A stretch of 64,000 nt of DNA, taken from assembly GCA_963664705.1 (NCBI GenBank), contig OY761556.1:3456001-3520000 (forward strand). The letters are read 5' to 3'. Both the position numbers and the translations under genes were made by a program. The notes under the pieces were generated by a model. That model saw only the letters and a list, made by a program, of their open reading frames with translations. It did not search any database and was not told the origin of the DNA. Position 1 is the first letter of the stretch. The number at the start of each line of letters is the position of its first letter. Source of the DNA: Acidobacteriota bacterium (GTDB lineage: Bacteria; Acidobacteriota; UBA6911). Shown one piece after another: positions 8,330 through 64,000 of the stretch.

Positions 8330-9895
8330 GTGGTCCACATTCACAGAGCTTTGGTCAGCGTTTCAGACAAATCGGGACTTGCCGAGTTGTCAAAAGTGCT
8401 TTACGAAATGGGCGTCGAGATCATTTCGACCGGAGGTACGGCTAACTTTTTGCGCGATCAGAAGATCCCCGTAGTGGACATTTCGGAGCATACAGGCTTC
8501 CCCGAGATTCTGGATGGACGGGTCAAAACACTGCACCCGCGAGTTCATGGTGGATTGCTCGCCATCAGAGGGAAAGCTTCGCATCAGGCCCAGATGAAGG
8601 AACAAAATATCCAACCTATCGATATGGTAATCGTAAACCTCTATCCGTTCCGGGAGACGGCAGCCCGAGAAGGGGTGCATTACGAGGAGGTTGTCGAACA
8701 GATCGATATCGGGGGCCCCAGCATGATCCGGTCCGCCGCGAAGAACCACGCGGGTGTCGCGGTGGTCACCGACCCGCGGGACTATGGATGGATCATGGAA
8801 GAGCTTCGCAAGAACAACGGAGCCCTGAGCGATACGACCCGGTTCATCCTCGCGCAGAAGGCATTTGCCTCAACAGCATCCTACGACAGTGCCATTGCTG
8901 CATGGTTTGCCGAAAGGGTCTGGTCCCCCGAAGGCGCCCAAAAAGAAACCGGCGGGCTGCCGGCATCGGAGGTGGTCGCCCTGGAAAAAATCACCGACCT
9001 CCGCTACGGAGAGAACCCCCATCAGCGAGCGGCACTCTATCGCCGGAGCAATGATCCGATGTTCGGCGTAGCGGGAGCAGAGGTCCTTCATGGAAAAGAG
9101 CTTAGCTATAACAACCTCCTCGACTCTGACGCCGCCTGGAATCTGGTAGTCGAGTTTGATAAAGCCGCGGCTTCTGTCATAAAGCACACGAACCCGTGCG
9201 GGATGGCTCAGGCGGACAGGCTCGTTGACGCTTACACGCTTGCCCGAGACAGCGATCCCGTGTCGGCTTACGGCTCGGTTGTCGCGTTCAACCGGGCGAT
9301 TGATCGGGATACGGCGGAGGAGCTGAACAAAACCTTCGTGGAAGTCGTGCTCGCACCCGATTTTGCAGAGGACGCGCTTGCCCTATTGAAGCAGAAAAAG
9401 AATCTCCGCCTCCTCAAAGTAAACAGAAAGACCCCCATAACCCTGCAACACCGTCAAATCGGCGGGGGCTTCCTCGTTCAGGATGCCGATATGTATTCGC
9501 TGAGGCCGGAGGAAATGAAGGTGGTAACCAAACGCGCACCGACCAAAGAGGAAATGGAAGCGCTCCTCTTCGGATGGCGCGTAGTGAAGCATGTAAAATC
9601 GAACGCTATTGTCTTCACGGATGCTATGAGAATGCTTGGAATTGGGGCCGGCCAGACCAGCCGCGTGGATGCCGTTAAATGGGGAGCCATGAAAGCAACT
9701 CTTCCACTGGAAGGGAGTTCCATGGCATCGGACGCATTTTTTCCATTCGCGGATGGCCTGGTAACCGCTGTAGGCTATGGTATCCGTTCGGTCATTCAAC
9801 CTGGAGGATCTGTCCGTGATGCTGAAGTCATTGAGGCAGCGGATGCTCATGGGGTTGCCATGATCTTCACCGGTATTCGCCACTTCAAACACTAG
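8330..9895 (+). CDS. purH: Bifunctional AICAR transformylase / IMP cyclohydrolase
   Basis: RALVSVSDK, GRVKTLHP, IDIGGPSMIR, LRYGENPHQ, KHTNPCG, SDAFFPF, GIRHFKH; GGAGG RBS before GTG. Confidence 0.98.
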   Translation: MVHIHRALVSVSDKSGLAELSKVLYEMGVEIISTGGTANFLRDQKIPVVDISEHTGFPEILDGRVKTLHPRVHGGLLAIRGKASHQAQMKEQNIQPIDMVIVNLYPFRETAAREGVHYEEVVEQIDIGGPSMIRSAAKNHAGVAVVTDPRDYGWIMEELRKNNGALSDTTRFILAQKAFASTASYDSAIAAWFAERVWSPEGAQKETGGLPASEVVALEKITDLRYGENPHQRAALYRRSNDPMFGVAGAEVLHGKELSYNNLLDSDAAWNLVVEFDKAAASVIKHTNPCGMAQADRLVDAYTLARDSDPVSAYGSVVAFNRAIDRDTAEELNKTFVEVVLAPDFAEDALALLKQKKNLRLLKVNRKTPITLQHRQIGGGFLVQDADMYSLRPEEMKVVTKRAPTKEEMEALLFGWRVVKHVKSNAIVFTDAMRMLGIGAGQTSRVDAVKWGAMKATLPLEGSSMASDAFFPFADGLVTAVGYGIRSVIQPGGSVRDAEVIEAADAHGVAMIFTGIRHFKH

Positions 9896-51089: not shown

Positions 51090-52556
51090 TTACTTTCCTC
51101 TCAGGAACTGTTCGTATTCAGTATCGGAAATGCCAATAGCTCTTGCCAACGCCAGTTTGGCTGCACTATGAGCCTGGAGACTGGCGATATAATTTTCGCT
51201 GGCAGTCGCGAGCGCTTCCTGAGCCTGTACCACCTCGACGTTATTCGTTACTCCCGCACGAAATCGGTCCTGCGATTGCAGGACCTGTTCATCGGCCAGT
51301 TTGATTGCGCTTTGCGCAACCTGGACACGGTCCGCGGCCGCCTTTAGATCCAGAAAAGCCGTCTGGATGCTGTAGTAGATTCTGCCGCGCAGATCCTCCA
51401 ATTCGGCCTGGCGCTGCCGCAATTGGGCTTCCGCCTGCCACTCAACCGCCTGAATGTTTCCACCTTGGAAGATCGGAATTCGCAGCACGCTGGCTATTGA
51501 AAACGTTCCATGGGAATCCCAGGGCCTTTGCCCGATGATGCCATAGTCGGCACTGAAGCCTACCGTAGGATAGCGACGTGCCCTGGCGGACTTGCGATCC
51601 AGTTCCGCGGATTTCAATTTTGCCTGCGCGCCCTGATAATCCGGCCGTTCTTTATAGGCGCGTTGTACGGCTTCGTCCAGCGTCATTCCGGGAATTGGCA
51701 CATAGGACATACCATCGGTCAGAGTGAACTCCTGGCCGAGCGGCAGGCCGATGGCACGCGCCAGCGCCAGTTTGTCTTTCGCGGCTATGTCCTCCGCCAC
51801 AATGAGCCTCTGCTGCTGAGCCTGAAGCTCGACCTGGGCGCGCAGCACCTCAATTCCCGGCACCACACCGGCCGCCTTCTGATCCATGGCAAGCCGATGA
51901 AGGACGTCGGCCGTCTTAACCTGAGCACGCGTCGCTTCAATCCTGCTGCTGTCCGCAATGGCCTGCAGGTAAAGGTTGGCAACCACATAAACAATGAGAT
52001 CCCGTGTATCCATTTTGGAGAGTTGAGCGGCTCTGAGATTCTCATTTTCCGCGCGATAACGATTCAAGGCCGAAAAATCGAGAACCGTCTGGCTGACGGA
52101 GGCCCTGATATCAAAAACATTAAAGGGGCCCACAACCGTTTTGGATCCGGGAAACCCGGAGAATCCGTATGCTTCGAGATTGACCTGCTGCTGGGATTCG
52201 GTCAGACCGGCACTCACCTGGGGCAAGAGGCGGCTGAGCGCGATCCGGCGCGCCGCACCCGTGGCGCGAACTTTCTCATCGCTCAACACCGCGCCAAGAT
52301 TGTAGTTCAAACCTCTCTTCACCGCCTCCGACAAGGAAATCGGAATGACCCCTCCAGTGGGTTTCCCGGTTGGAATGCCTCCCAGCAAAGGATTTTGCAT
52401 GTCGCCGACATCGGCGGCAGACATGGCCGAAGCTGCGCCAGCCTGACTTGAAGCGGACGAATACTCTGACCCGGCCGCGGATTGTCCAGGCCTCTGCGCC
52501 AGGGCGGACACCCCAAACAACAGAATTGTGACCGGAATGCTGAGAAAACGTTTCAT
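51090..52556 (-). CDS. TolC-family outer membrane efflux protein
   Basis: Signal peptide (MKRFL...SALA), two OEP repeats, IPIFQGG, RFRAGV...EV.QAQ. Confidence 0.9.
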   Translation of the reverse strand: MKRFLSIPVTILLFGVSALAQRPGQSAAGSEYSSASSQAGAASAMSAADVGDMQNPLLGGIPTGKPTGGVIPISLSEAVKRGLNYNLGAVLSDEKVRATGAARRIALSRLLPQVSAGLTESQQQVNLEAYGFSGFPGSKTVVGPFNVFDIRASVSQTVLDFSALNRYRAENENLRAAQLSKMDTRDLIVYVVANLYLQAIADSSRIEATRAQVKTADVLHRLAMDQKAAGVVPGIEVLRAQVELQAQQQRLIVAEDIAAKDKLALARAIGLPLGQEFTLTDGMSYVPIPGMTLDEAVQRAYKERPDYQGAQAKLKSAELDRKSARARRYPTVGFSADYGIIGQRPWDSHGTFSIASVLRIPIFQGGNIQAVEWQAEAQLRQRQAELEDLRGRIYYSIQTAFLDLKAAADRVQVAQSAIKLADEQVLQSQDRFRAGVTNNVEVVQAQEALATASENYIASLQAHSAAKLALARAIGISDTEYEQFLRGK

Positions 52557-52835
52557 TGCATTTCCTTTCCAGGTAATGTCACATGGGAAGCCTGCGCAAC
52601 ATCGAAGAAGTGTAAAATTGGCAAGCAAAATCCGGAAGACGTCCTATAATCGCAGTATCAGCGAAACCTATTCAATACCCGTTCATTACGCAAACAACTC
52701 GTACTAAAGCTATTCTGCACAAACGTTTTATGCTGACATACCCGGCTCCGGCAGTCAACGGATTTGCAGAACCGGAGCATAGTCGGAACAGATGGTCAAC
52801 CCGAAGCGTCGAAATCTGAAATCCGAATCCGCGAT

Positions 52836-52859
52836 ATAGATACATACATATATACCTAT
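52836..52859 (+). repeat. ATACNTAT tandem array, site A
   Basis: ATAGATAC ATACATAT ATACCTAT in the tolC/xdhC divergent gap. Confidence 0.75.
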
Positions 52860-53040
52860 CCGGCATAAAAGGAAGCATTGTCGGGCTGCGGGCTATGGAA
52901 CACACATTCACCAAGTTTTTTCGCTGGCTCAATGAGTTCGGATCATGTATTGATTATGGTTCTCTTGCAGGGGAATACGCGGGCACAAGATCCTCCGCAG
53001 GGCTTTGTTTAGGGAAAACTGAGTCAAAGGAAGATTGGAA

Positions 53041-54129
53041 ATGTATCGTCAAGTAAAGCAGCTCTTGGAAGAAAATGAAACTCTGGCCGTTGCAACGATA
53101 GTTTCAACACTAGGCTCAACTCCCAGGGGAGTGGGAGCAAAAATGGTTGTCACCACCTCCGGAGAAATTCTGGGAACCGTCGGCGGAGGATGCGGAGAAG
53201 CGGAGGTAGTTCGCAAAGCGGTTGAGGTCATCCGTTCGCGTGAAACGGCGCTGGTTACCGTCGAACTCATGGATGATATCGAATCCAACAGCCCCGCGGT
53301 GTGCGGCGGAGTCATGAGTGTATTCGTGGATCCGTGGTGGCAGGAGCCGGGCAACCGGGTCTCGGTAAAATTAGCCGGCGAGATGGTGGAGGTGCAGGAG
53401 CAAGGCACGGAAGCGGTCATCGCCACGGTCATTGGGGTGGAAGGCCTGCAGGATGTGATGCTCGGACAGAAGTGCATGATTCGCGGTGGTGTTCCCTGCG
53501 GTGGCAGCATCTCCAACCAGGAACTGATCGAAGCCATTCTCAAAGAAGCAGAGATTCGACTGAAGAAAGAGGATTGCCGTCGCGTACCGCTGGATCTGAG
53601 CGGCGGCAAGGCAGAGGTATTTTTTGACGTCATCCCGGCAACTCAAAAAGCCGTGATCGTCGGAGCCGGACATCTCGCCATTCCCCTGGCAAAGTTTGCC
53701 AAAATCCTTGGATTCCACACCACGGTGATTGACGACCGGGTCATCTATGCCAACCGGGAGCGCTTCCCGGACGTTGAAGAAGTTCTGGCCGGGGATATGG
53801 CAGAAACCCTGCGAGGGATCGAAATCACGCCGCATACCTACATTGTACTGATCACGCGTGGTCATCAATACGATGAACCCTGTCTTCGGGAGGTCATACA
53901 CAGCCAGGCAAAATATATCGGCATGATCGGCAGCCGGCGACGCATCAAAGCCTGCTTCATCCGATTCAGGGATGAGGATAAAATCCCGGAAGAACTGCTG
54001 AAGCGGGTGCACGCCCCTATTGGACTCGATATCAAAGCGGAATCGCCGGAAGAGATCGCGTTGTCGATCATCGCGGAAATGGTCAAGGCGCGCAGAGGCG
54101 GAACGGGACAATCGCTCGCAGGATTCTAG
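53041..54129 (+). CDS. xdhC: XdhC/CoxI-family molybdenum hydroxylase accessory protein
   Basis: GSTPR..GAKM, GTVGGGCGE, CGG, GAGH, TRGHQYD, YIGMIGSRRR, HAPIGLDI.AESPEEIA. Confidence 0.9.
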   Translation: MYRQVKQLLEENETLAVATIVSTLGSTPRGVGAKMVVTTSGEILGTVGGGCGEAEVVRKAVEVIRSRETALVTVELMDDIESNSPAVCGGVMSVFVDPWWQEPGNRVSVKLAGEMVEVQEQGTEAVIATVIGVEGLQDVMLGQKCMIRGGVPCGGSISNQELIEAILKEAEIRLKKEDCRRVPLDLSGGKAEVFFDVIPATQKAVIVGAGHLAIPLAKFAKILGFHTTVIDDRVIYANRERFPDVEEVLAGDMAETLRGIEITPHTYIVLITRGHQYDEPCLREVIHSQAKYIGMIGSRRRIKACFIRFRDEDKIPEELLKRVHAPIGLDIKAESPEEIALSIIAEMVKARRGGTGQSLAGF

Positions 54130-54308
54130 AGTAGTAAGTCAGAAGTCCTTTGCCTTTTGGAATTCCTGTTTTAGCGCCGGAGGCCTGCGGCATTTAGCTT
54201 CCAATACCGGTCTTATATAAAGATCGGGTGGACGCGCCGCACTGGAGGCATATCCTGATCCCCGAACATGCTCCCAGGCGCAGGCCGTCGGAAGAGAGAA
54301 CGCTCACA

Positions 54309-54836
54309 ATGACAATAAACAAGCGGAACCTGATTCTATGCGGCTTTATGGCCACGGGCAAATCGTCGGTCGGGAAAAAACTGGCTTCGCTTGTCGGATA
54401 TGACTTCCTCGATATGGATGCATCGATTGAGGCGGAAGAGGGGATCTCCATTCCACGGATATTCGCGGAACGGGGCGAAGCGGCGTTCCGAGCGCTGGAA
54501 TGCGCCCTGGTGGAACGCCTCGCGAGTCGATGCGGCCTTGTGATCGCAACCGGCGGCGGGACCATCGTAAACCCGCTGAATCTGGAAAAGCTGAAAGGCT
54601 GCGGGATTCTTATTAATCTCACCGCCGACATTGACACCATCATTGCGCGCGCCGGATCCGGAGAAGACAGGCCAATGCTGCAGCAGGGCGATCGGCGGGA
54701 GAGGATTGAAAAGCTATTGGAACAGCGTGCATCGTCCTATGCTCAGGCCGATCTTGCCGTCGACACATCGTCGCTTTCTATTGAAGATGTCGCAAAGCTG
54801 ATCCTGGATTGTTTACGGGAAAGCGGCCGCCTGTAG
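54309..54836 (+). CDS. aroK: Shikimate kinase
   Basis: GFMATGKS, IF...GE..FR..E, ATGGG, RPML; start taken at MTINKR. Confidence 0.93.
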   Translation: MTINKRNLILCGFMATGKSSVGKKLASLVGYDFLDMDASIEAEEGISIPRIFAERGEAAFRALECALVERLASRCGLVIATGGGTIVNPLNLEKLKGCGILINLTADIDTIIARAGSGEDRPMLQQGDRRERIEKLLEQRASSYAQADLAVDTSSLSIEDVAKLILDCLRESGRL

Positions 54837-54849
54837 CCTTCCCTCAACC

Positions 54850-54873
54850 ATACATATATACATATACACCAAT
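54850..54873 (+). repeat. ATACNTAT tandem array, site B
   Basis: ATACATAT ATACATAT ACACCAAT between convergent aroK and aroQ. Confidence 0.75.
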
Positions 54874-54938
54874 TATCCACACCAAAACACGAAACCTCCC
54901 GGATTCCGGTAACCCTTCAGGCTTCAAAAGGTACCGTT

Positions 54939-55397
54939 CTATGCCTTCCGGTCGGCACTCCTGTCCTGCAGCATCCCTATCAAAGCAAGAATACCGCTGG
55001 TATAGCTGCGAATCCCAAGACCCGCGATGCACCCCGCAACCACCGGAGAAATGACGGAGTGATTTCGGAATCCCTCGCGCGAGTAAATGTTGGACAGATG
55101 CACTTCTATGGCGGGAAGGTGGACCGCCGACAAGGCATCGCGAATCGCATAGGAGTAGTGCGAGTAGGCTCCAGGGTTGATGACGATTCCATCTGCCCAT
55201 TTGTAGGCACCCTGAATCGCATCAATCAGCGCTCCTTCGCTGTTGGATTGAAAGGTGCGAACCTCCGCCCCATACTCCGCTGCCAGCTTTTTCATCCGCG
55301 CATCGATTTCGTCCAGAGTCAATGTTCCATACACCTCCGGTTCCCGCGTTCCCAGCATGTTCAGGTTGGGTCCATGGATGAGTAGAATTTTGAACAC
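54939..55397 (-). CDS. aroQ: Type II 3-dehydroquinate dehydratase
   Basis: [41 protein letters not shown]. Confidence 0.97.
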
Positions 55398-55421
55398 GGC
55401 CGTTCCTCCTTCGGAAAATTG

Positions 55422-56417
55422 CTATGCAATCTCAATGTGAATCTTGCCCGCTCCGCCAGTGCCGGCAAACTTCAAGGCTTCTCCCAGTTTTCCCAAAGGA
55501 AATGTGTGGGTGACAACGCTTGCCGGATGCAGCGCTCCCTTGGCTACCATGCCAATGACATATTCAAAGTCGGACGGATGATCATAAATCATCGAGGTGC
55601 GAATATTGATTCCTTCGCGTACCAGTTTCATCGGGTAGAAACTGGCGGCCGTCGATGAAAGCCCCAGGAGAATCACCTGGGCCCCGCGCGGCACTGCACT
55701 CAGAGCCAGTTCCACGGTGGGCGTTACGCCGGCACACTCAAAAACCGAACTGACGTTTTCCGCCAGCCACAAGCGACCGATATCCTCCGATTCAGAAGGA
55801 ATAATGGCACCGAGCTTTTCCGCCATCTTCTGCTTCTCGGGAAGCCGGTCGTGCGCGATCACGCGCACTCCCGCGGCCGCCGCGGCATGTACCAGCAGCA
55901 AACCTACAACGCCGCATCCAAGGACTGCAACCGTATCCCCGGCCTTGGCCCCGGATACCAACAGCCCGTGCATGGAAACCGTTAACGGCTCGATGGTAGC
56001 GGCATCGAAATCGGAAATCCCATCCGGAATCGACCAGACAAATTCAGCCGGCGCCAGCGTTCTCTGAGCAAAACAACCTGGATCATTGACACCCATGCTG
56101 ATCTTCTGCGCGCAAACGGCACCACGACCGGAACGACAGAGCGCGCATTTTCCGCACGGATAGTTGGGCTCCACAATAACGCGTTGCCCGAGACGGAATT
56201 TTGTGACCCCCTCGCCCAAGGCAACCACGCGGCCCATCAGCTCATGCCCGAGGATGAATGGATAAGGAACCGAGCGGTGGCCCGCAAAAATCGAAATGTC
56301 GGTTCCGCAGATTCCGGCAATGGCGGGCTGAATTAAAACCTCACCCGCCGCGGGTTGCAGTTCCGCCGCGGTTTCAATGACAATTTTCTCAGGAGCAAGC
56401 AGCAACGCAGCTTTCAT
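55422..56417 (-). CDS. Zn-dependent medium-chain alcohol/polyol dehydrogenase
   Basis: GICGTD, GHE..G, CGKCALC..G....C, GCGVVG; start taken at MKAALL after GGAGG. Confidence 0.9.
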   Translation of the reverse strand: MKAALLLAPEKIVIETAAELQPAAGEVLIQPAIAGICGTDISIFAGHRSVPYPFILGHELMGRVVALGEGVTKFRLGQRVIVEPNYPCGKCALCRSGRGAVCAQKISMGVNDPGCFAQRTLAPAEFVWSIPDGISDFDAATIEPLTVSMHGLLVSGAKAGDTVAVLGCGVVGLLLVHAAAAAGVRVIAHDRLPEKQKMAEKLGAIIPSESEDIGRLWLAENVSSVFECAGVTPTVELALSAVPRGAQVILLGLSSTAASFYPMKLVREGINIRTSMIYDHPSDFEYVIGMVAKGALHPASVVTHTFPLGKLGEALKFAGTGGAGKIHIEIA

Positions 56418-56609
56418 ATGAACCTCCGAATCCATCAGCGCTTCCTGAGTAGCCTAACACAGGAGTCTGCTTCCGTTGGTGAAATATCACAGCGCGGGCA
56501 CTAGTGCAAACGCATCATAAAATTATCAAGCGCAAATTGACGAACCGTGCTAGAATTCACACGGCAGCAGAAAATTCAGGACTAAATATTTGTTGGAGGA
56601 TTTCAAACA

Positions 56610-56912
56610 ATGTCCTTTAAGATCATCGAAGAATGCATCAATTGTGGTGCTTGCCAGCCCGAATGCCCTAATGCGGCGATTTACGCCGGCGGCGAAGATT
56701 ATGAACTCAACGGTAAGACACTGCCCGCTCTTTCGCAGGATTTTCATTATATAGTGCCCGAGAAATGCACCGAATGCATCGGATTCCACGACGATCCGAT
56801 GTGCGCGTCCGTGTGCCCGACAGACTCTTGCCAGAAGGATCCGGAAAAGGCCGAGACGAAGGAAGCTCTTTTGGCAAAGGCAAAGGCGCTGCATCCCGAT
56901 AAAAGTTTTTAG
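56610..56912 (+). CDS. 2x[4Fe-4S] ferredoxin, YfhL type
   Basis: CINCGACQPECP and CTECIG......CASVCP; GGAGG RBS. Confidence 0.94.
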   Translation: MSFKIIEECINCGACQPECPNAAIYAGGEDYELNGKTLPALSQDFHYIVPEKCTECIGFHDDPMCASVCPTDSCQKDPEKAETKEALLAKAKALHPDKSF

Positions 56913-56930
56913 TAAATCTATGAATCCGTC

Positions 56931-56974
56931 AGGAGCTCGCAGATAAAACGCACGCCTGCTGTCTGCGAGCTTCT
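56931..56974 (+). terminator. Intrinsic terminator after the ferredoxin gene
   Basis: 14-bp stem aggagctcgcagat / gtctgcgagcttct with a T-rich tail. Confidence 0.65.
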
Positions 56975-57149
56975 TCGATTCTTGCGGTCATCCCGGCTGA
57001 GGTGTATTGGTATGCCCGGCCGGACACTGCAGCCTGCCGCTATCGCATTTCCCCCAAAACATCATTCTCCCACGCACTTTTGCTCCATAGTATATCCACA
57101 CTAACTGCTTCCTCGCCTCCTGACTCACAATGACAGTGCCTAATACTCC

Positions 57150-57173
57150 ATACCTATATACGTATATACATAA
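57150..57173 (+). repeat. ATACNTAT tandem array, site C
   Basis: ATACCTAT ATACGTAT ATACATAA, overlapping a TAAAAT hexamer at 57171. Confidence 0.8.
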
Positions 57174-57337
57174 AATCTTGAGGAGCCGAACTGCCGCCGT
57201 CATTGTTTCCAAAAACAAGGGCAATGCGACGCGAGATGGCCTAAAATAGAAGTAACTGGAGGCAAAGTCTCCCCCTCTACTTCGAGTCCTTCTGAATTTC
57301 ATCTCGGCTTGCATATAGGTGCAAAACGGAGGGAATC

Positions 57338-58072
57338 ATGGATCACTCACAAACAGATGTTACGGCACGCATTTCGGAACGCCAGATGCGTTTGTGGAAT
57401 GCGCTTCATCGCGGGAAACGGGAATCCGAATCGGGAACTCCCGGAAAATCTTCGTACAGGTTCCTGACACTTTCACGAGATGAAGGAAGTCTGGGGAATG
57501 AAATAGCGACCAAACTCGCCGCGCGCCTGAAATGGCACGTGTTTGATCGGGAGATTTTAAATTATATCGCCCAGAACAATCATGTTCGGGAGGACATGGT
57601 CGGTCAACTGGATGAGAAATCGCAAGGGCTCATGCATGAGGCTATCCTGCGTCTTCTACGAATGCCCGAAAGCGCTCCCTTCGGTCTGGAGGAGTATCAC
57701 GAGTCACTGCTCAAAACACTGGCAATGATCGCATCCCGCGGTGAAGCCGTGATGATCGGGCGCGGCGCCAATTTCGCGCTGCGCGACACGAACCAGGGAC
57801 TGCACGTACGCATCACCGGATCGTTTGAGATTCGATTGCACCGGGAATGCGAACGACTCCAATGGCCGATGGATAAAGTTCGAGCGGATCTGGCGGCCCG
57901 GGATGCAGACCGTCGCCAGTTTATCCGCTACCATTTCAAAAAGGATTTCGATGACCCGAGGTATTACGACATCAGCTTTAACACAGATACATTATCCGTG
58001 GAACAGATCGTGGAAGCGATCGATTCCATGATGCATCAAACCAATCCACTAGAGGAAAAGCAGGCTTCGTAG
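57338..58072 (+). CDS. Cytidylate kinase-like family protein
   Basis: LTLSRDEGSLGNEIA, FDREIL, VMIGRGANF, D..R..FI..HF, YD..FNT. Confidence 0.85.
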   Translation: MDHSQTDVTARISERQMRLWNALHRGKRESESGTPGKSSYRFLTLSRDEGSLGNEIATKLAARLKWHVFDREILNYIAQNNHVREDMVGQLDEKSQGLMHEAILRLLRMPESAPFGLEEYHESLLKTLAMIASRGEAVMIGRGANFALRDTNQGLHVRITGSFEIRLHRECERLQWPMDKVRADLAARDADRRQFIRYHFKKDFDDPRYYDISFNTDTLSVEQIVEAIDSMMHQTNPLEEKQAS

Positions 58073-58231
58073 GGAGGCACATGGGGAGAATTTTCACTCG
58101 ATGAATTAAATACATTATTCCGGATCCCTGCCGATACGTAGAAATACGTAGCATCGATTGGCTACTGATACCTACACCAAGTTGAGCAGTTTGGCGAATT
58201 GATCCTGAAAGTGTTTGGCGCTTGAATGAAA

Positions 58232-58251
58232 TTGACGTCAGGGCACGTCAA
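58232..58251. promoter_or_regulatory. Palindromic operator-like site TTGACGT-N6-ACGTCAA
   Basis: Perfect 7-bp inverted repeat 90 nt upstream of the zf-HC2 gene. Confidence 0.45.
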
Positions 58252-58341
58252 GCATCTCGCCCTCGCGACAAGGCCATTCAGGAATTCAAACAGGTTGCAT
58301 TTGCCGGAAACTTGCAGCGAAAGACAGAACGGAGAGGGACC

Positions 58342-58533
58342 ATGAGTACATGCAGCTTCAAACGGCTAGTTCAATTGTTGGACAAACAGCTGAATCTCGA
58401 TGAAAAACTCGAAGTGTTGGAGCATCTCGATAAGTGCTCCATCTGCAGAGATGCCATTTACCAGATATCCCGGGACCGCGATGAAGCCTACTTCGTGCAC
58501 CGGCCCTACAAAGTGGAAAAGATCGTCGCCTAG
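58342..58533 (+). CDS. Small zf-HC2 (ZAS anti-sigma-like) zinc-finger protein, 63 aa
   Basis: C...(L.D.QL...E...V)LEHLDKCSIC HxxxCxxC motif; GGAGAGG RBS before ATG 58342. Confidence 0.8.
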   Translation: MSTCSFKRLVQLLDKQLNLDEKLEVLEHLDKCSICRDAIYQISRDRDEAYFVHRPYKVEKIVA

Positions 58534-58714
58534 ATCCGACGACCCGGTTTTGCCGTTACCGCTATTTTATCGACCACCGCATCCTCTTGCGCGAAGCGCG
58601 GAATAACATTTTTATCCGCGTCCCCTTGCGGCCCGCGGTCTTGACCCAACCACACCGCACGCCATATTACCTCCAAGACTTATTCGTGATAGCCGATTCT
58701 CCACACGGGACTGG

Positions 58715-58723
58715 TGCTATAAT
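58715..58723 (+). promoter_or_regulatory. Extended -10 element (TGcTATAAT) for the DUF2339 gene
   Basis: Perfect TGnTATAAT 38 nt upstream of the ATG; AGGAG RBS at 58751. Confidence 0.6.
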
Positions 58724-58761
58724 CCCCGCATACCAGACAGTATTTCAAACAGGAGCAGGCT

Positions 58762-61700
58762 ATGTTCGTACTCTTGATAGTACTGGCAGTCTTCCTGGCT
58801 GTCCTCTGGTCCAAAGTAAGCCAAAATTCCGCACAGATGCGATTCCTCGAAGAACAGCTCGCGCTTCTGCAAAACCGGATCGAGGGGTTGTCCCGCACTG
58901 TGAGGGAGCTTAGCTCCGGACCCAGGCCTGAATCAGCGCCGGAAAATATCGAAAAACGCCAAGAGCCGGCTCCACCGCCTGCAAAAACAGCTGCCCCGGA
59001 AGCAGCACCGAAAGTCGAACCGCAGATTCTGAAGCCGGCGGCCGCGAAGCCTCCGTCGCCTCCATCCCCCCCGCCCGTGCCCGTGGCACAACCCATCTCA
59101 GCGGCCGTGACTGGACCGCATGCCCCTGAGGTCCAGAAACAACCTCCGGGAGCAGCCATCCCGCTCCGACCTGCGCTCAGGAAACTGCCCAAATTCGATT
59201 GGGAAAGCCTGGTGGGGGTAAAGCTCTTTTCCTGGATTGCCGGCGTCGCTTTGCTGCTGGCGGTTGTATTTTTCCTGCGCTATTCGATCAATCAGGGCTG
59301 GTTGATGCCCAAGGTTCGCATGACCATCGGGATCATCATCGGCATCGGGCTTCTGGCGCTTTGTGAACTCAAAGCTGCACGCCGCTATCCGGTAACCGCC
59401 AACGCCATGGATGCATCCGCGATAGCAATTTTGTTTTCCACATTCTATGCGGCGCGCGCTCTCTGGGACCTGGTTGGCGCCATCCCCGCCTTTATCCTGA
59501 TGGTCCTCGTTACGGCCATCGCGGTATGGCTCTCCATACGGCGCGATTCCGCCTTCATCGCCCTGCTTGGTCTCCTCGGCGGGTTTGCTACCCCTGCCCT
59601 TCTTTCTACGGGAGAAAACAAGCCCATCTCGCTTTTTGCCTATCTCCTTTTATTAAACGCGGGACTGGCATGGGTGGCCACGAAAAAGAAGTGGCCTCTC
59701 TTGATGACTCTCAGCCTGATTTTTACCGTCTTCTATCAGTGGGGTTGGGTGATCCGATTTCTTACCGATGCCCAACTCCCGGTTGCCTTGGGTATTTTCC
59801 TGGTCTTTCCAATACTGGCCTTCGTCGTTGCCGCTTTCGGTCGTGGCCAGGGTAACAAGGGATGGATCTCGCTGTATGGCCAGACTGCCAATATCACGGC
59901 CTTGCTGCCGCTCTTGTTCAATCTGTATCTGGCAGCAGTCCCGGCCTATGGACACCGCTATATTCTTCTCTTCAGCTTTCTCCTTCTTCTCGATGCGGGC
60001 CTTTTCATCATTGCAGCGATACGCGGCCCCGAGATACTGCACCTCGTTGGAGGTTTGTCGACGCTGCTGATTCCGGCAATCTGGCTGTGGCGCTCCTATG
60101 AAAGCAGCGCATGGCCATCCCTGCTTGTTTTCCTGGTTCTTCTCACATTCCTTTATCTCTTCGCCCCGCTTGCGGCTCAGCGGCTCCGCCATGGATTCCA
60201 TGATGCAGGCCGCTGGGCCGTGTTTACGGCGCCTGTTATTCTTTTTGCATTTCCGGCACTCGTGATCATGGAGCCGGCATGCGCAAATCCCTCGATCCTT
60301 TTCGGGGTTCTGCTGATTCTTCTACTCGCCGTTTCCGGATATGCAATCCTCGCGGAAACAGGGCCCGCCTATTTCATTGCCGCGGTCTTTGCGCTATTGA
60401 CCGAAGCCTTGTGGGCCGGCATGTATCTGACTCCCGACCGCCTGATTCCAGGGCTTGCCATCTTTTCCATTTTCGGTTTGGTGTATATTGCCGTGCCCGC
60501 GCTCGCGCGTAGATGGGAGAAGAAGCTTCAGCCCGAAGTGGCCGGGCCGCTGCTTCTGTTGCTCAGCATAGCCCTTCTTTTTTTCCTGTCGATGGGAACA
60601 ATGGCCTCCGCCGCAATCTGGGGACTGGCAGTGCTCCTGCTCCTGTTGAACATTGGACTGCTATGGCATGGGGAGCCCCTCGTGGCTCTTGTCGGAATGA
60701 TCCTTTCCTGGTTTATCCTTGCTTCACTATGGCGCAGCCTGTCACTGGACAGCGATTTAATTCCGGCACTGATCGTGATGGGAAGCTTTGCCCTGTTCGT
60801 CCTGGCAGGAAACATATGGCTGCAGAAGAAATCGCCGGGGGGAACTCCGGAAAGCGGCGTTTTCCTCGGATTGACCGGGCACCTGTTCCTGGCGTTCCTG
60901 GCCACGCAGGCATCTCTGGCCATCCCGCCATGGCCGCTGTTCAGCGTCCTTCTGATTCTCGATCTGGCAATTGGTATGTCCGCCCTGTACCTCAGGCGCG
61001 ATGAGCTTCACAGGGCAGCCATGGTGGCGTCCGCATTTGTTTTGATGATCTGGGTCGTCACTGCAAAGGTCTATCCCTGGCCGGGTATTGCGATCCTGTG
61101 TGCGGCCGGGCTTTCTCTTTTCAGTTTTATCTGGATCTACCTGGCCAGGCGGACCAGCACCGATTCCGATCCATACTCGGTCACCACTGCCATTGCCTTG
61201 TTTATGGCGCAAGTTGCGACGATTGTCGCAGCCATGCAACCCGGAGTTCCCAGCGTCGGGTACCTGCTCCTGGCTCACATGGTGTTTCTGATTGCTCTGA
61301 TGGCTCTCGCGTGGCCACGCCGTCATCAATATGTGTTGATTGCGGTCTTCCCAACAGCCATCGCGGTTACATTCTGGATTCTCGGGCATGCCGGACCTGA
61401 GTTCTGGCTGCAACAACTGCTCTTTGCTGCACCGGTATACCTTCTGTTCATCGCCTACCCTCTCCTTTTGGGCCGTCGCGCCGAAAGATCGGTGCAACCC
61501 TATCTGGCCGCCGTTCTGGCTAGCATTCCATTCTTCTTCCAGGCCAGGCATGCCATGCTGCAGGCAGGCTGGGAAGGCTTCATCGGCATTCTACCGGTCC
61601 TGCAGGCACTCCTGATGGGCAGCCTTGTGCTCCGGTTGCTGCGCATGGAACCACGCGCTGGCCGTGCGCTCGGACGCCTTGCATTCGTATCAGGAGCAGC

Positions 61701-62433
61701 GCTTGCCTTTATTACAGTGGCGATACCTCTGCAGCTTGAAAAGGAGTGGATCACCATCGGATGGGCGTTGGAGGGCGCTGCACTGTCCTGGCTATACAGA
61801 AAAATACCGCACAAAGGACTGCTTTACACGGCGGCTGGACTATTTACGGCTGTATTTGTCCGCCTGGCTTTGAATCCTTTCGTTCTTACCTATGCGGAAC
61901 GAAGTGATATTCGAATCTGGAACTGGTACCTGTACACCTACCTCCTGTCGGCCGCAGCCATGATTGTCGGGAGTCGGCTCCTGGCAAAAACAAAGGATGG
62001 GCTTCTTTCCGACTCGATTTCCCTTTCAAAGCTGACCCCTGGTGGCGCGGTCATTTTGCTCTTTCTGCTGCTGAATATTGAAATCGCCGCTTACTATTCC
62101 ATCGGCCCTACAATCACATTTAACTTCTCCGCAACGCTCGCACAGGATCTCACCTATACCTTGGGATGGGCTTTGTTCGCCGTTGCCTTGCTGGCCGTGG
62201 GCATTATGTTCCGCAACCAGTCGGCCCGTATCGCTTCCCTGGGATTGCTCGTCGCTACCAGCGTGAAATGCTTCATCCACGACCTTGCCAGGCTTGGAGA
62301 GTTGTACCGCGTCATGTCATTTGTCGGCCTTGGCGTATGCCTTGCACTCGTTGCCCTGGCGCTGCAGAAGTTTGTTTTCGCCGCGCGGAAGAAGGAAGGA
62401 GAAGCCGCGGAGACGGGAAACCCGGAAAGATAA
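58762..62433 (+). CDS. DUF2339 polytopic membrane protein
   Basis: TM, coiled coil and Pro-rich linker; WESLVGVKLFSWIAG, LGGFATP.LLSTG, more than 25 TM segments, KCFIHDL..L..LYRV.SF.GLG. Confidence 0.88.
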   Translation: MFVLLIVLAVFLAVLWSKVSQNSAQMRFLEEQLALLQNRIEGLSRTVRELSSGPRPESAPENIEKRQEPAPPPAKTAAPEAAPKVEPQILKPAAAKPPSPPSPPPVPVAQPISAAVTGPHAPEVQKQPPGAAIPLRPALRKLPKFDWESLVGVKLFSWIAGVALLLAVVFFLRYSINQGWLMPKVRMTIGIIIGIGLLALCELKAARRYPVTANAMDASAIAILFSTFYAARALWDLVGAIPAFILMVLVTAIAVWLSIRRDSAFIALLGLLGGFATPALLSTGENKPISLFAYLLLLNAGLAWVATKKKWPLLMTLSLIFTVFYQWGWVIRFLTDAQLPVALGIFLVFPILAFVVAAFGRGQGNKGWISLYGQTANITALLPLLFNLYLAAVPAYGHRYILLFSFLLLLDAGLFIIAAIRGPEILHLVGGLSTLLIPAIWLWRSYESSAWPSLLVFLVLLTFLYLFAPLAAQRLRHGFHDAGRWAVFTAPVILFAFPALVIMEPACANPSILFGVLLILLLAVSGYAILAETGPAYFIAAVFALLTEALWAGMYLTPDRLIPGLAIFSIFGLVYIAVPALARRWEKKLQPEVAGPLLLLLSIALLFFLSMGTMASAAIWGLAVLLLLLNIGLLWHGEPLVALVGMILSWFILASLWRSLSLDSDLIPALIVMGSFALFVLAGNIWLQKKSPGGTPESGVFLGLTGHLFLAFLATQASLAIPPWPLFSVLLILDLAIGMSALYLRRDELHRAAMVASAFVLMIWVVTAKVYPWPGIAILCAAGLSLFSFIWIYLARRTSTDSDPYSVTTAIALFMAQVATIVAAMQPGVPSVGYLLLAHMVFLIALMALAWPRRHQYVLIAVFPTAIAVTFWILGHAGPEFWLQQLLFAAPVYLLFIAYPLLLGRRAERSVQPYLAAVLASIPFFFQARHAMLQAGWEGFIGILPVLQALLMGSLVLRLLRMEPRAGRALGRLAFVSGAALAFITVAIPLQLEKEWITIGWALEGAALSWLYRKIPHKGLLYTAAGLFTAVFVRLALNPFVLTYAERSDIRIWNWYLYTYLLSAAAMIVGSRLLAKTKDGLLSDSISLSKLTPGGAVILLFLLLNIEIAAYYSIGPTITFNFSATLAQDLTYTLGWALFAVALLAVGIMFRNQSARIASLGLLVATSVKCFIHDLARLGELYRVMSFVGLGVCLALVALALQKFVFAARKKEGEAAETGNPER

Positions 62434-62510
62434 CTCCACACGGGAAGGGAAATAATCCGACAGGATTCCAGCCGCTGTGCCGATTAGATGCGCAGCAGGG
62501 AGCGTATAGC

Positions 62511-63476
62511 GTGGGTACCTTTCGTTTTACAGTCGAGCATTTCTCCAGGGAACTTGCACCGGATCGTGCAAAGGCTCTGTTCAAGGCATCCGTTAATCAG
62601 ATTGAGATCGAGACGTTTACCTATTGCAACCGCACCTGCTGGTTTTGCCCGAATTCGAGAATCGATCGCCGATCCGAAAACAAATACATGGACGAAAGCC
62701 TGTATTTGCGCGTTCTTGATGAACTCGCGGCCATCGATTACGACAAAGTCATTACCTATAGCCGGTACAACGAGCCGCTGGCTGATCGAATTATTCTGAC
62801 TCGTCTTCGTCAGGCACGCCAGGCGCTGCCCAAAGCCTGTCTTTCCACCCACTCCAATGGCGATTACCTGAAGCGCGAGTACCTTGATGAACTCAGAGAT
62901 GCCGGGTTGAATCGGCTACGGGTCCAGGTCTATCTTGGCAACAAAGAAGAGCCTTTTGATGACCACAAGGTCCTGTTCCGAATGATTCAGAAACTGAAAA
63001 GCCTCGGACTGCCCTATAAGATGATCGCCGCATCCCAGGGAATCCGCTATCTGGCACAGGTCCATTATGAGGGAATGGAAGTCACGTTTGACGCCAGAAA
63101 TTTTGCGGAAATCGGCATTGACCGCGGACAAACCGTAACGCTGCCCAAAGTCTATGAGCGGAATTCACCGTGCCTGATCGTGTTTCAGCATTTGTACATC
63201 GATTATGACGGGACCGTCGTTCCCTGCTGCAATATTCGGTCGGATATACCCGAACATGCCCCCTACCTGATCGATCGCCTTGGTAAAGACCGGACAATTT
63301 ACCAGGCTTTTGCCAATAGTTCTCTGGTGGAATGGCGGCGATCGCTGGTCGGCTTCGGTCCTAAAAAGAAGCCGTGCAACACCTGCGGCTACGAATGCCT
63401 GGACGATACGCCTCAGATGCGCATGCAATTCGACGCCGTTGTTCGGCAGTTCGGCCTAAGCGAAACCCGAAACTAA
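62511..63476 (+). CDS. Radical SAM protein with SPASM/twitch C-terminal domain
   Basis: CNRTCWFC, YNEPLAD, SNGDYL; C......IDYDG.V.PCC...CNTC. GTG 62511 after GGGAG is the likely start; the longer ORF overlaps DUF2339. Confidence 0.85.
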   Translation: MGTFRFTVEHFSRELAPDRAKALFKASVNQIEIETFTYCNRTCWFCPNSRIDRRSENKYMDESLYLRVLDELAAIDYDKVITYSRYNEPLADRIILTRLRQARQALPKACLSTHSNGDYLKREYLDELRDAGLNRLRVQVYLGNKEEPFDDHKVLFRMIQKLKSLGLPYKMIAASQGIRYLAQVHYEGMEVTFDARNFAEIGIDRGQTVTLPKVYERNSPCLIVFQHLYIDYDGTVVPCCNIRSDIPEHAPYLIDRLGKDRTIYQAFANSSLVEWRRSLVGFGPKKKPCNTCGYECLDDTPQMRMQFDAVVRQFGLSETRN

Positions 63477-63521
63477 TCCATACATATCAACGAATGTCGC
63501 TGATTGAAATCCCGGCAGGAT

Positions 63522-63549
63522 GGATTCCAGATTCCCGATTCCGGATCTT
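63522..63549. repeat. Tandem heptamer repeat (NGATTCC-like, 4 copies)
   Basis: GGATTCC AGATTCC CGATTCC GGATCTT between convergent genes. Confidence 0.65.
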
Positions 63550-63550
63550 C

Positions 63551-63745
63551 TCACCGATCATGGCGGTGCGATTGAAAATCAGACACGGTTTCGTTCCTGG
63601 AGTGCTTCGACTTCTTCCCTTCCTCCGATAGAAAGTACTCGATCAGACGTCGAATCACTTCACCCATCTCGGTATTGTTGTCCACACACCAGTGTTTCAG
63701 CTGCTTATGAAGATCTTCCGGCAGATTCATACTGAATTTTTTCAT
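63551..63745 (-). CDS. ParG-like ribbon-helix-helix DNA-binding protein, 64 aa
   Basis: KKFSMNL alternating beta-strand, helix PEDLHKQLKHWC, helix MGEVIRRLIEYFL; the H..(F/L)K..C pattern matches plasmid ParG. Confidence 0.8.
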   Translation of the reverse strand: MKKFSMNLPEDLHKQLKHWCVDNNTEMGEVIRRLIEYFLSEEGKKSKHSRNETVSDFQSHRHDR

Positions 63746-63749
63746 GTGA

Positions 63750-63769
63750 ATACATATATACCTATATAC
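63750..63769 (+). repeat. ATACNTAT tandem array, site E (putative auto-operator of the RHH gene)
   Basis: ATACATAT ATACCTAT ATAC, 4 nt from the RHH start codon; the 16-mer is identical to site A. Confidence 0.8.
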
Positions 63770-63933
63770 GACGCGGGATCAATGGGTATTTTTTAAGCCG
63801 ACGGAATGCACGCCTTTGCAGCAGGTTAGACGTTATGCGGAATTACGCCCCATCAAGGAATTGAAAAAAGAACCTCCATCAGATAGGAATATGGGCACAA
63901 ACAAAACCGATTGGATGCATGGAGGAAAACACC

Positions 63934-64000
63934 GTGAAAGTACTGGCCATTAATGGAAGTCCAAGGAAAAAGTGGAACACCGCCACATTGCTGCAGAAAG
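63934..64000 (+). CDS. 5' end of a flavodoxin-fold / NADPH-dependent FMN reductase family gene (truncated)
   Basis: GGAGG RBS, then GTG: MKVLAINGSPRKKWNTATLLQK. Confidence 0.85.
   Translation, partial: MKVLAINGSPRKKWNTATLLQK

Follow-up and report, generated by a model that had tools for sequence, protein, structure and literature searches.

A small ribbon-helix-helix protein, probably a repressor of mobile-element origin, lies within a genome-unique cluster of 8-bp arrays on an Acidobacteriota chromosome

Introduction

What does a lone gene for a ribbon-helix-helix (RHH) protein do on a bacterial chromosome when operator-like tandem arrays lie around it, one of them directly at its start codon? 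We addressed this question in a window of 64,000 nucleotides from an Acidobacteriota bacterium (positions 3,456,001–3,520,000 of C1, the single contig of a 6,894,879-bp genome), where a gene for a 64-amino-acid (aa) RHH protein is accompanied, within 11 kb, by five sites built from an 8-bp unit (Table 1). A first-pass annotation of the window had proposed that the protein binds these sites, in the manner of ParG of plasmid TP228, and that the locus might be a regulon or a dispersed centromere-like system. In the reading that we prefer, to which we give a probability of about 0.4, the protein would be a repressor domesticated from a phage-like element that silences its own gene, and the distal arrays would be selected auxiliary sites that together form an 11-kb protein-bound patch. 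The evidence is sequence-based and comes from one lineage. Our coverage of the literature, which was incomplete, yielded no account of such a module, nor of any chromosomal ParG orphan that has arrays around it.

Results

Tandem 8-bp arrays are confined to 11 kb around the RHH gene

The sequence bears out the first-pass description of five intergenic sites in the same orientation, all on the plus strand, and ATACATATATACCTAT is indeed identical at 52844 and 63750. The 8-bp unit is a pseudo-palindrome, with ATACGTAT as its symmetric form. The array reported to abut the RHH start codon is array 5. The site at 63480–63487, described earlier as a single unit, consists of one perfect unit and a degenerate second unit that extends to 63495, and the first 52 kb, described as free of the motif, contain no tandem units and two lone 8-mers, at 9489 and 39641. 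We observed 12 matches to the unit in the window, as against 1.55 ± 1.24 in shuffled sequences; none of 100 shuffles reached 12.

We measured how unusual this clustering is across the whole genome. The pattern ATACNTATATACNTAT has four matches in 6,894,879 bp, all at window positions 52844–63765 and on one strand, with an expectation of 0.005–0.011 matches per genome (Markov orders 3, 5 and 7). Even scatter across the genome, which the first-pass annotation had named as contrary to its proposal, is therefore not what we observed; every match is within 11 kb of the RHH gene. Allowing one mismatch added a single site outside the cluster, at 2,779,829. As an unbiased control, we examined all patterns of tandem 8-mers in which 7 of 8 positions are repeated and which occur at four or more separate sites: just one of these 165 patterns had all of its sites within 15 kb, and it was the pattern of these arrays. 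The cores of the distal arrays are perfect, with 14/14 specified bases intact in each and the 8-bp register kept. The third units vary between arrays and are not copied from array 5.

Outside this genome, the motif was found singly in 2 of 136 other genomes of the class, one of the two occurrences being an RHH operator, and singly in 4 of 400 other genomes of the phylum, none of which had more than one site. The first-pass annotation had also named occurrence of the motif in relatives without the RHH gene as contrary to its proposal; the exact pattern of the distal arrays was absent from all 29 congeners. The orthologous gaps that we inspected also lacked them: array 2 had no counterpart at its position in any of 27 congeners, and array 3 was not seen in the matching gap of 15. 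Site 4 is absent from L059, a metagenome locus on a 3.9-kb contig that carries a close RHH homologue and has no radical S-adenosylmethionine (SAM) gene. Since the arrays are absent from congeners and operators are single elsewhere, the cluster is, as far as we have seen, peculiar to this lineage.

A Logan contig covers positions 51500–64000 with 0 differences, and arrays 2 and 3 are matched exactly by short contigs of a second study. An assembly artefact is unlikely because both sets of contigs match, and we rejected mis-assembled or artefactual sequence for this reason; the spanning Logan contig is possibly the source of the window's own DNA, so that it excludes gross artefact only. The ATAC of the unit starts at 52840, 54850, 57150, 63480 and 63750, coordinates that all end in 0. 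We take this to be a coincidence because the public contigs carry the same sequence. There was no Rfam match of note within window positions 52–64 kb. An origin of the arrays in miniature inverted-repeat transposable elements (MITEs) was rejected, the array flanks belonging to no repeat family except a common heptamer repeat.

The protein is Arc/ParG-like and very probably represses its own gene

The 64-aa protein is an Arc/ParG-like RHH protein. Single matches are weak and all agree, in line with the first-pass assignment. The Pfam ParG family matches at 20.6 bits, under its cut-off of 21.4, and this is the sole ParG match in the genome. A PHROGs search returned Arc-like repressors (E 6e-6), and a profile built from a 14-sequence alignment of the protein matched the PDB entries 9kkd (E 1.6e-5), 1p94, which is ParG (E 0.005), and 2kel (E 0.005). 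The AlphaFold monomer model has helices at residues 10–23 and 27–45, does not form the N-terminal strand, and has a mean predicted local distance difference test (pLDDT) score of 68.6, with a low-confidence tail (pLDDT <50 over residues 45–56 and 62–64). The top rows of a fold search with this model were RHH proteins, none reaching E 0.001.

Residue 2 of the protein aligns to residue 35 of ParG, indicating that the N-terminal tail of ParG, with its arginine finger, is absent here. The protein has instead a C-terminal extension of ~17 aa that is predicted to be disordered. This extension is common to P0001–P0004, is not found in the 47–50-aa mobile forms described below, and ends in F[QH]SHRH, a motif common to close relatives.

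Array 5 overlaps the inferred promoter of the RHH gene, as do the operators of Arc/CopG/MetJ-type autorepressors. We read this promoter by eye from a layout common to the homologues, and it is too weak for a consensus scan, which called no promoter on any array, array 5 included. In L059, an 88%-identical RHH gene lies directly after a DUF2339 gene, and 22 bp of the operator are identical between array 5 and this locus. Across the family, a lag of 8 was the best or tied repeat period in the 40 nt upstream of the gene at 24 of 30 loci. Codons 1–44 differ from those of L059 by 18 synonymous and 2 non-synonymous changes, indicating that the gene is maintained under purifying selection; codons 45–65 differ by 5 synonymous and 6 non-synonymous changes. 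Given the family-wide repeat at leaderless starts, the stand-alone gene under purifying selection and the identical operator of L059, the protein very probably represses its own gene through array 5. This is the part of the first-pass binding proposal that has gained most.

The remaining sites are placed differently. Only one of the five sites overlaps a recognisable promoter, and two are located between the stop codons of convergent genes. Array 1 is 57–77 nt outside both of the conserved promoter-like blocks in its gap (~52710–52760 and 52917–52958). Array 2 sits 13 nt from the aroK stop codon, and array 3 is past a terminator-like hairpin of the ferredoxin gene, ~165 nt before the kinase-like gene.

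Table 1. Positions of the arrays, the RHH gene and its parts in the 64,000-nt window
Feature	Position	Strand	Context or basis
Array 1, three 8-bp units	52836..52859	+	between divergent tolC-like and xdhC genes
Array 2, three 8-bp units	54850..54873	+	between convergent aroK and aroQ stop codons
Array 3, three 8-bp units	57150..57173	+	between ferredoxin gene and cytidylate-kinase-like gene
Site 4, a perfect unit and a degenerate one	63480..63495	+	between stop codons of the convergent radical SAM and RHH genes
Array 5, three 8-bp units, likely operator	63750..63773	+	ends 4 nt ahead of the RHH ATG
64-aa Arc/ParG-like RHH gene	63551..63745	-	RHH core at about residues 1-45
C-terminal extension	63554..63613	-	alignment, model and codon comparison with L059
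Inferred leaderless RHH promoter	63753..63782	-	TTGATC, 18 nt, TATATG, 7 nt, ATG; overlapped by array 5

The gene is likely to derive from an integrase-control module

Homologues of the protein are distributed patchily, in 23 of 137 genomes of the class (profile search). Most are 47–50 aa long and have a leaderless start just after promoter-like sequence, as judged by eye. The mobile forms are followed by a conserved hairpin and then by a short open reading frame (ORF), and a tyrosine integrase is encoded at most 3.5 kb downstream in 14 of the 20 homologue loci outside a fixed clade, g24; three of the six loci that have none are cut by contig ends. One locus also carries a MerR-type helix-turn-helix gene and a D5-type primase gene, which satellites also carry. 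The module of RHH gene, hairpin, short ORF and integrase gene is present in homologues and absent from the window and from L059. Based on this context, the RHH gene of the window is likely to be a domesticated descendant of a module that controlled the integrase in an integrated phage-like element. The first-pass annotation was correct that no mobile gene adjoins the RHH gene here, and overlooked this origin. Among the Acidobacteriota of this group, many genes annotated as "ParG" probably encode integrase-operon repressors and are not partition genes. A search of viral contigs returned two distant RHH matches and a single match to the motif, in DNA that is very AT-rich, which we judged to be due to chance.

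In the g24 group, the RHH gene is fixed between an extracytoplasmic function (ECF) sigma module and a homocysteine methyltransferase gene. These forms have ATACATAT-like units at the start of the gene, share the M–N pair of the ribbon with the window's protein, and have a tail of their own; an integrase fragment lies 3.3 kb away in one of six g24 loci. In a tree of 42 rows and 50 columns, from which P0007 and four class matches were left out and in which deep forks are weak, the window's clade was supported at 99/92, among forms like the 75%-identical copy in genome G002. The g24 clade was supported at 100/99 as a separate group that includes one integrase-linked copy. Hence, the mobile repressor appears to have been fixed twice independently, once in each clade. 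We observed no dispersed arrays genome-wide in five g24 genomes or in G002. The stand-alone g24 loci are G128:C78 (L104), G129:C82 (L107), G130:C53 (L112), G132:C5 (L100), G133:C16 (L106) and G135:C13 (L109); this lineage adjoins the ECF-sigma/anti-sigma module and the homocysteine S-methyltransferase gene, and its tail is a conserved LIVYP-like one.

The mobile loci also share a stem-loop, ~80 nt past the RHH stop codon and ahead of the next short ORF. Seven of its nine predicted pairs have two-sided changes in 17 sequences (L071, L073–L079, L006, L008, L082, L085, L087, L092, L093, L095 and L096), and Rfam gave nothing at E 0.5 across 16 loci that we scanned. The stem-loop may represent a cis-regulatory or antisense-type RNA of these elements that has so far gone undescribed.

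The locus has few of the features of a partition system

The first-pass annotation had noted correctly that no ParA gene adjoins the RHH gene, which is flanked by a radical SAM/SPASM gene and a flavin mononucleotide (FMN)-reductase gene, and had suggested a search for an unpartnered ParA. Using tblastn with three ParA queries from this genome, we found no ParA-like gene in window positions 44–64 kb, in the next 18 kb, in L059 or in 26 homologue loci. We inspected the AAA_31 and CbiA matches and rejected an orphan ParA partner, all of them having other contexts, partners or roles. Labelled by eye, they include the origin-linked ParA, two element-borne ParAs with downstream genes of their own, two short ATPases in conjugation-type operons, a ParA-like fusion, and FlhG/MinD-, Mrp-, NifH-, CpaE-, FtsY-, tyrosine-kinase- and cobalamin-synthesis-like proteins. 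Of the ParM and TubZ families, the search took in the ParM-like ALP_N alone, which is absent from the genome. The chromosome has intact canonical parAB genes at 5.41 Mb, together with two parS sites. Two conjugation-type operons, paralogues of each other that include short P-loop ATPases, lie at C1 5,655,700–5,663,000 (L203) and 6,482,300–6,489,600 (L202), and two paralogous ParA-bearing integrated modules at 6.36 and 6.40 Mb.

With type Ib partition systems the locus shares an RHH DNA-binding protein. It lacks the N-terminal tail, an adjacent ParA and arrays of at least 4 (omega) to 8 (ParG) units. As described for ParG, the N-terminal tail with its arginine finger stimulates the ATPase, and 8 units of parH are needed for efficient activity (PMC3130281); the N-terminus of omega is needed likewise, with ParA delta (PMC2441792), and the omega centromere is described as having a minimum of 4 contiguous units (PMC9499535). 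A type Ib centromere is unlikely because there is no nearby ParA, no N-terminal tail, and only 2–3 units per array. In its mode of action, the locus would come closer to a repressor of the Arc/MetJ type that has additional sites.

The arrays lie in conserved core chromosome

Of 15 congener loci, 14 retain the order xdhC, aroK, aroQ, adh, ferredoxin, zinc finger, partially so where a contig ends, and G013 keeps the aroQ-to-zinc-finger part only. The aroK and aroQ genes are convergent in 23 of 27 congeners, G004 included. The kept gene order indicates core chromosome and not an integrated replicon. The cluster is mid-replichore, at neither origin nor terminus (skew minimum ~5.25–5.30 Mb, skew maximum ~1.95–2.01 Mb, dnaA at 5.288 Mb); no dif-like site was found with the one motif that we tried. 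We rejected a plasmid-origin or iteron reading, there being no replicase among the ORFs read and 52 perfect DnaA boxes genome-wide. A perfect DnaA-box 9-mer at 54873–54881 abuts array 2, and with so many boxes in the genome this one may be due to chance; one-mismatch boxes lie at 57092, 58697, 59434 and 63678, all on the plus strand.

None of seven congener loci has an RHH gene after DUF2339, and four of the seven (G017, G005, G024 and G010) have a partner gene there instead. This partner is absent here (window 62433–63551) and in L059, and the RHH gene occupies its place, in the window together with the radical SAM/SPASM gene. Also within the span of the arrays, at 58130–58152, two ATACGTA-like units with a 10-bp period lie upstream of a zf-HC2 gene. 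This motif is unique in the genome and was seen by eye in 14 of 15 congeners. It is likely to be a site of another conserved regulator. Its unit is similar to that of the arrays, and its period is different. Inverted repeats resembling repetitive extragenic palindromic (REP) elements are clustered at 3,795,668–3,800,999, and a similar element lies upstream of the RHH gene in L059 (~2870–2930). Elsewhere on the chromosome, AACGTT-type 7/8-mer tandem repeats are dense in, and confined to, a region of intergenic gaps at about 1.31–1.47 Mb (L147), where they flank a gene for a TIGR02436 four-helix-bundle protein, and three copies of a ~20-bp operator-like motif lie over promoters around an IclR-like gene (L146, C1 6,757,900–6,767,900).

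Discussion

The known system closest in array geometry is that of MetJ, which binds tandem 8-bp palindromes, with RHH dimers on at least two contiguous units, as described in PMC3413123 and PMC4239095. The symmetric form of the unit here has the central ACGT of the met-box. By contrast, MetJ sites are described as lying genome-wide at methionine genes, whereas these sites span 11 kb, are mostly off promoters and are not at methionine genes, and MetJ families in Pfam and NCBIfam gave no match to the protein. The first-pass comparison with ParG was right about the 8-bp period and overlooked this closer geometry. With ParG, as described in PMC3130281, the locus further shares the nearest Pfam family, AT-rich spacing and an operator over the gene's own promoter; unlike ParG, the protein lacks a flexible N-terminal tail and ParF, has a C-terminal tail, is encoded in core chromosome, and has 2–3 units per array as opposed to 8–12. 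Omega of plasmid pSM19035 likewise has one RHH protein and several separated tandem arrays (parS1–3), two contiguous units being its minimal cooperative site. Its arrays are described as having 7–10 heptads, as overlapping promoters in every case and as acting with ParA delta (PMC2441792, PMC9499535), in contrast to those here. With the Arc-like repressors that phages and satellites encode (PHROGs 3180, 582 and 876), the protein shares its family origin: at homologous loci, a small autoregulatory RHH protein heads an operon with a tyrosine integrase. In the window, the hairpin, ORF and integrase downstream of the gene have been lost, and a tail and distal arrays gained.

We suggest that an RHH repressor was captured from the integrase-control module of a phage-like element and now silences its own leaderless promoter through array 5. 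One dimer would occupy each 8-bp pseudo-palindrome, with neighbours binding cooperatively in the style of MetJ and ParG. The protein is likely to bind the three distal arrays as auxiliary sites too, and these may be under selection: their cores are perfect, their flanks unrelated and their third units different, and the gene is under purifying selection, for which a repressor of itself alone would offer no obvious reason. A scarce, self-limiting protein might gain sites near its own gene only. The confinement of the arrays fits such a protein, as for LacI, which is described as regulating targets close to its own gene more strongly (PMC3472691). Because the distal arrays avoid promoters, we propose that the 11-kb repressor-bound patch would act as a transcription roadblock or loop, and not as a centromere. 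Least certain is the downstream effect: arrays 2 and 4, for example, may insulate convergent gene ends, and arrays 1 and 3 may tune the tolC/xdhC and kinase promoters from a distance.

Several observations weigh against this reading, most of which would be expected if only array 5 is functional and the distal arrays are neutral copies of the promoter-operator, recent or relic, made locally by templated insertion, gene conversion, or duplication followed by loss. Array 1 is at the left edge of a lineage-specific ~72-nt segment that is missing in genome G014. On its right, the flank of array 1 is as similar to the L059 operator flank as the flank of array 5 is (score 29, p ~0.01), and the flank of array 2 resembles the G002 operator (p 0.04–0.07); these p values are uncorrected among 42 comparisons, after which neither likeness is significant. 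The third unit of array 2 also resembles that of G002. Short repeats of other kinds have spread locally in this genome, as hepta- and octamer families at 1.31–1.47 Mb, and copying would produce one-strand orientation and locality with no need for selection. The distal arrays are known from one member of the lineage. The first-pass annotation had asked whether homologues share both the upstream array and the local cluster: the upstream 8-bp repeat is common to most, and the operator is repeated nearby in 0 of 26 homologue loci of 3.9–20 kb. In g24 the operator is single in 5/5 genomes, so that retention of the protein does not need distal arrays. Copying is harder to reconcile with perfect cores among unrelated flanks that have no MITE-like family in the genome, with the lack, by eye, of RHH coding relics beside arrays 1–3, and with the position of array 2 so close to the aroK stop codon. 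Given the g24 forms, the insert edge at array 1 and the local spreading of repeats, we regard neutral copying as the main rival, somewhat unlikely yet far from negligible. A classical local regulon, in which the RHH protein represses or activates the promoters of tolC-hlyD efflux, xdhC-aroK, the cytidylate-kinase-like gene and the FMN-reductase gene, or antisense promoters within the arrays, is less likely. Arrays 1, 3 and 5 are upstream of genes, the genome has an ordinary local example near the IclR-like gene at 6.757–6.768 Mb, and omega is described as controlling three separated promoters via such arrays (PMC2441792). Nevertheless, the placement of two sites between convergent stop codons, the distance of array 1 from both promoter-like blocks and the lack of a consensus promoter over arrays 1–4 argue against a regulon, and the neighbouring genes are functionally unrelated and keep the same order in congeners that lack the regulator.

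Sites that are clustered, co-oriented, mostly off promoters and mid-arm could also serve chromosome structure. One such proposal, a ParA-independent organiser in which the new tail bridges dimers on private arrays and so folds or anchors an 11-kb mid-replichore domain, seems to us improbable; if true, it would be a nucleoid-structuring system caught at birth, from a phage-satellite repressor. MatP is an RHH-containing protein whose matS sites are confined to one chromosome region, a large terminus domain. The locus resembles MatP/matS in its region-restricted sites, at an 11-kb scale, and differs in its mid-arm position, its 64-aa protein, its restriction to a lineage and a weak structural match; nor is it conserved across the genus, as a macrodomain organiser would be. 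We consider a dispersed centromere-like or arm-positioning site, at which the C-terminal tail recruits a partner in trans to organise the mid-replichore, to be quite improbable, and with it the centromere-like option of the first-pass annotation. In its favour, ParG ranks with the closest matches in both sequence and fold, and the last residues of the tail are conserved; opposed to this are the absence of an N-terminal tail and arginine finger, arrays below the described minimum, the lack of ParA near the gene or the homologue loci and of an ALP_N match in the genome, the intact parAB–parS system, and 29 congeners that manage without arrays. Most improbable of all is retention of the gene for immunity, its product silencing the RHH-integrase promoter when related elements enter the cell, with the distal arrays as level-buffering decoys. 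The nearest mobile relative, that of G002, has a very similar operator, both independent fixations show purifying-type conservation, and immunity would account for retention in g24 with one site. Against it, most mobile relatives have a different operator, the search of viral contigs yielded no element that carries this one, and the proposal does not account for why decoys would be selected.

Overall, the locus presents a genome-unique case of a newly captured repressor with likely sites only within 11 kb of its gene, mostly off promoters. Were the distal arrays selected, it would show a mobile-element repressor gaining a host function, and offer a small testable system for the idea that the sites of scarce regulators evolve close to the regulator's gene. 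Were they neutral copies, it would point to a process that copies DNA locally.

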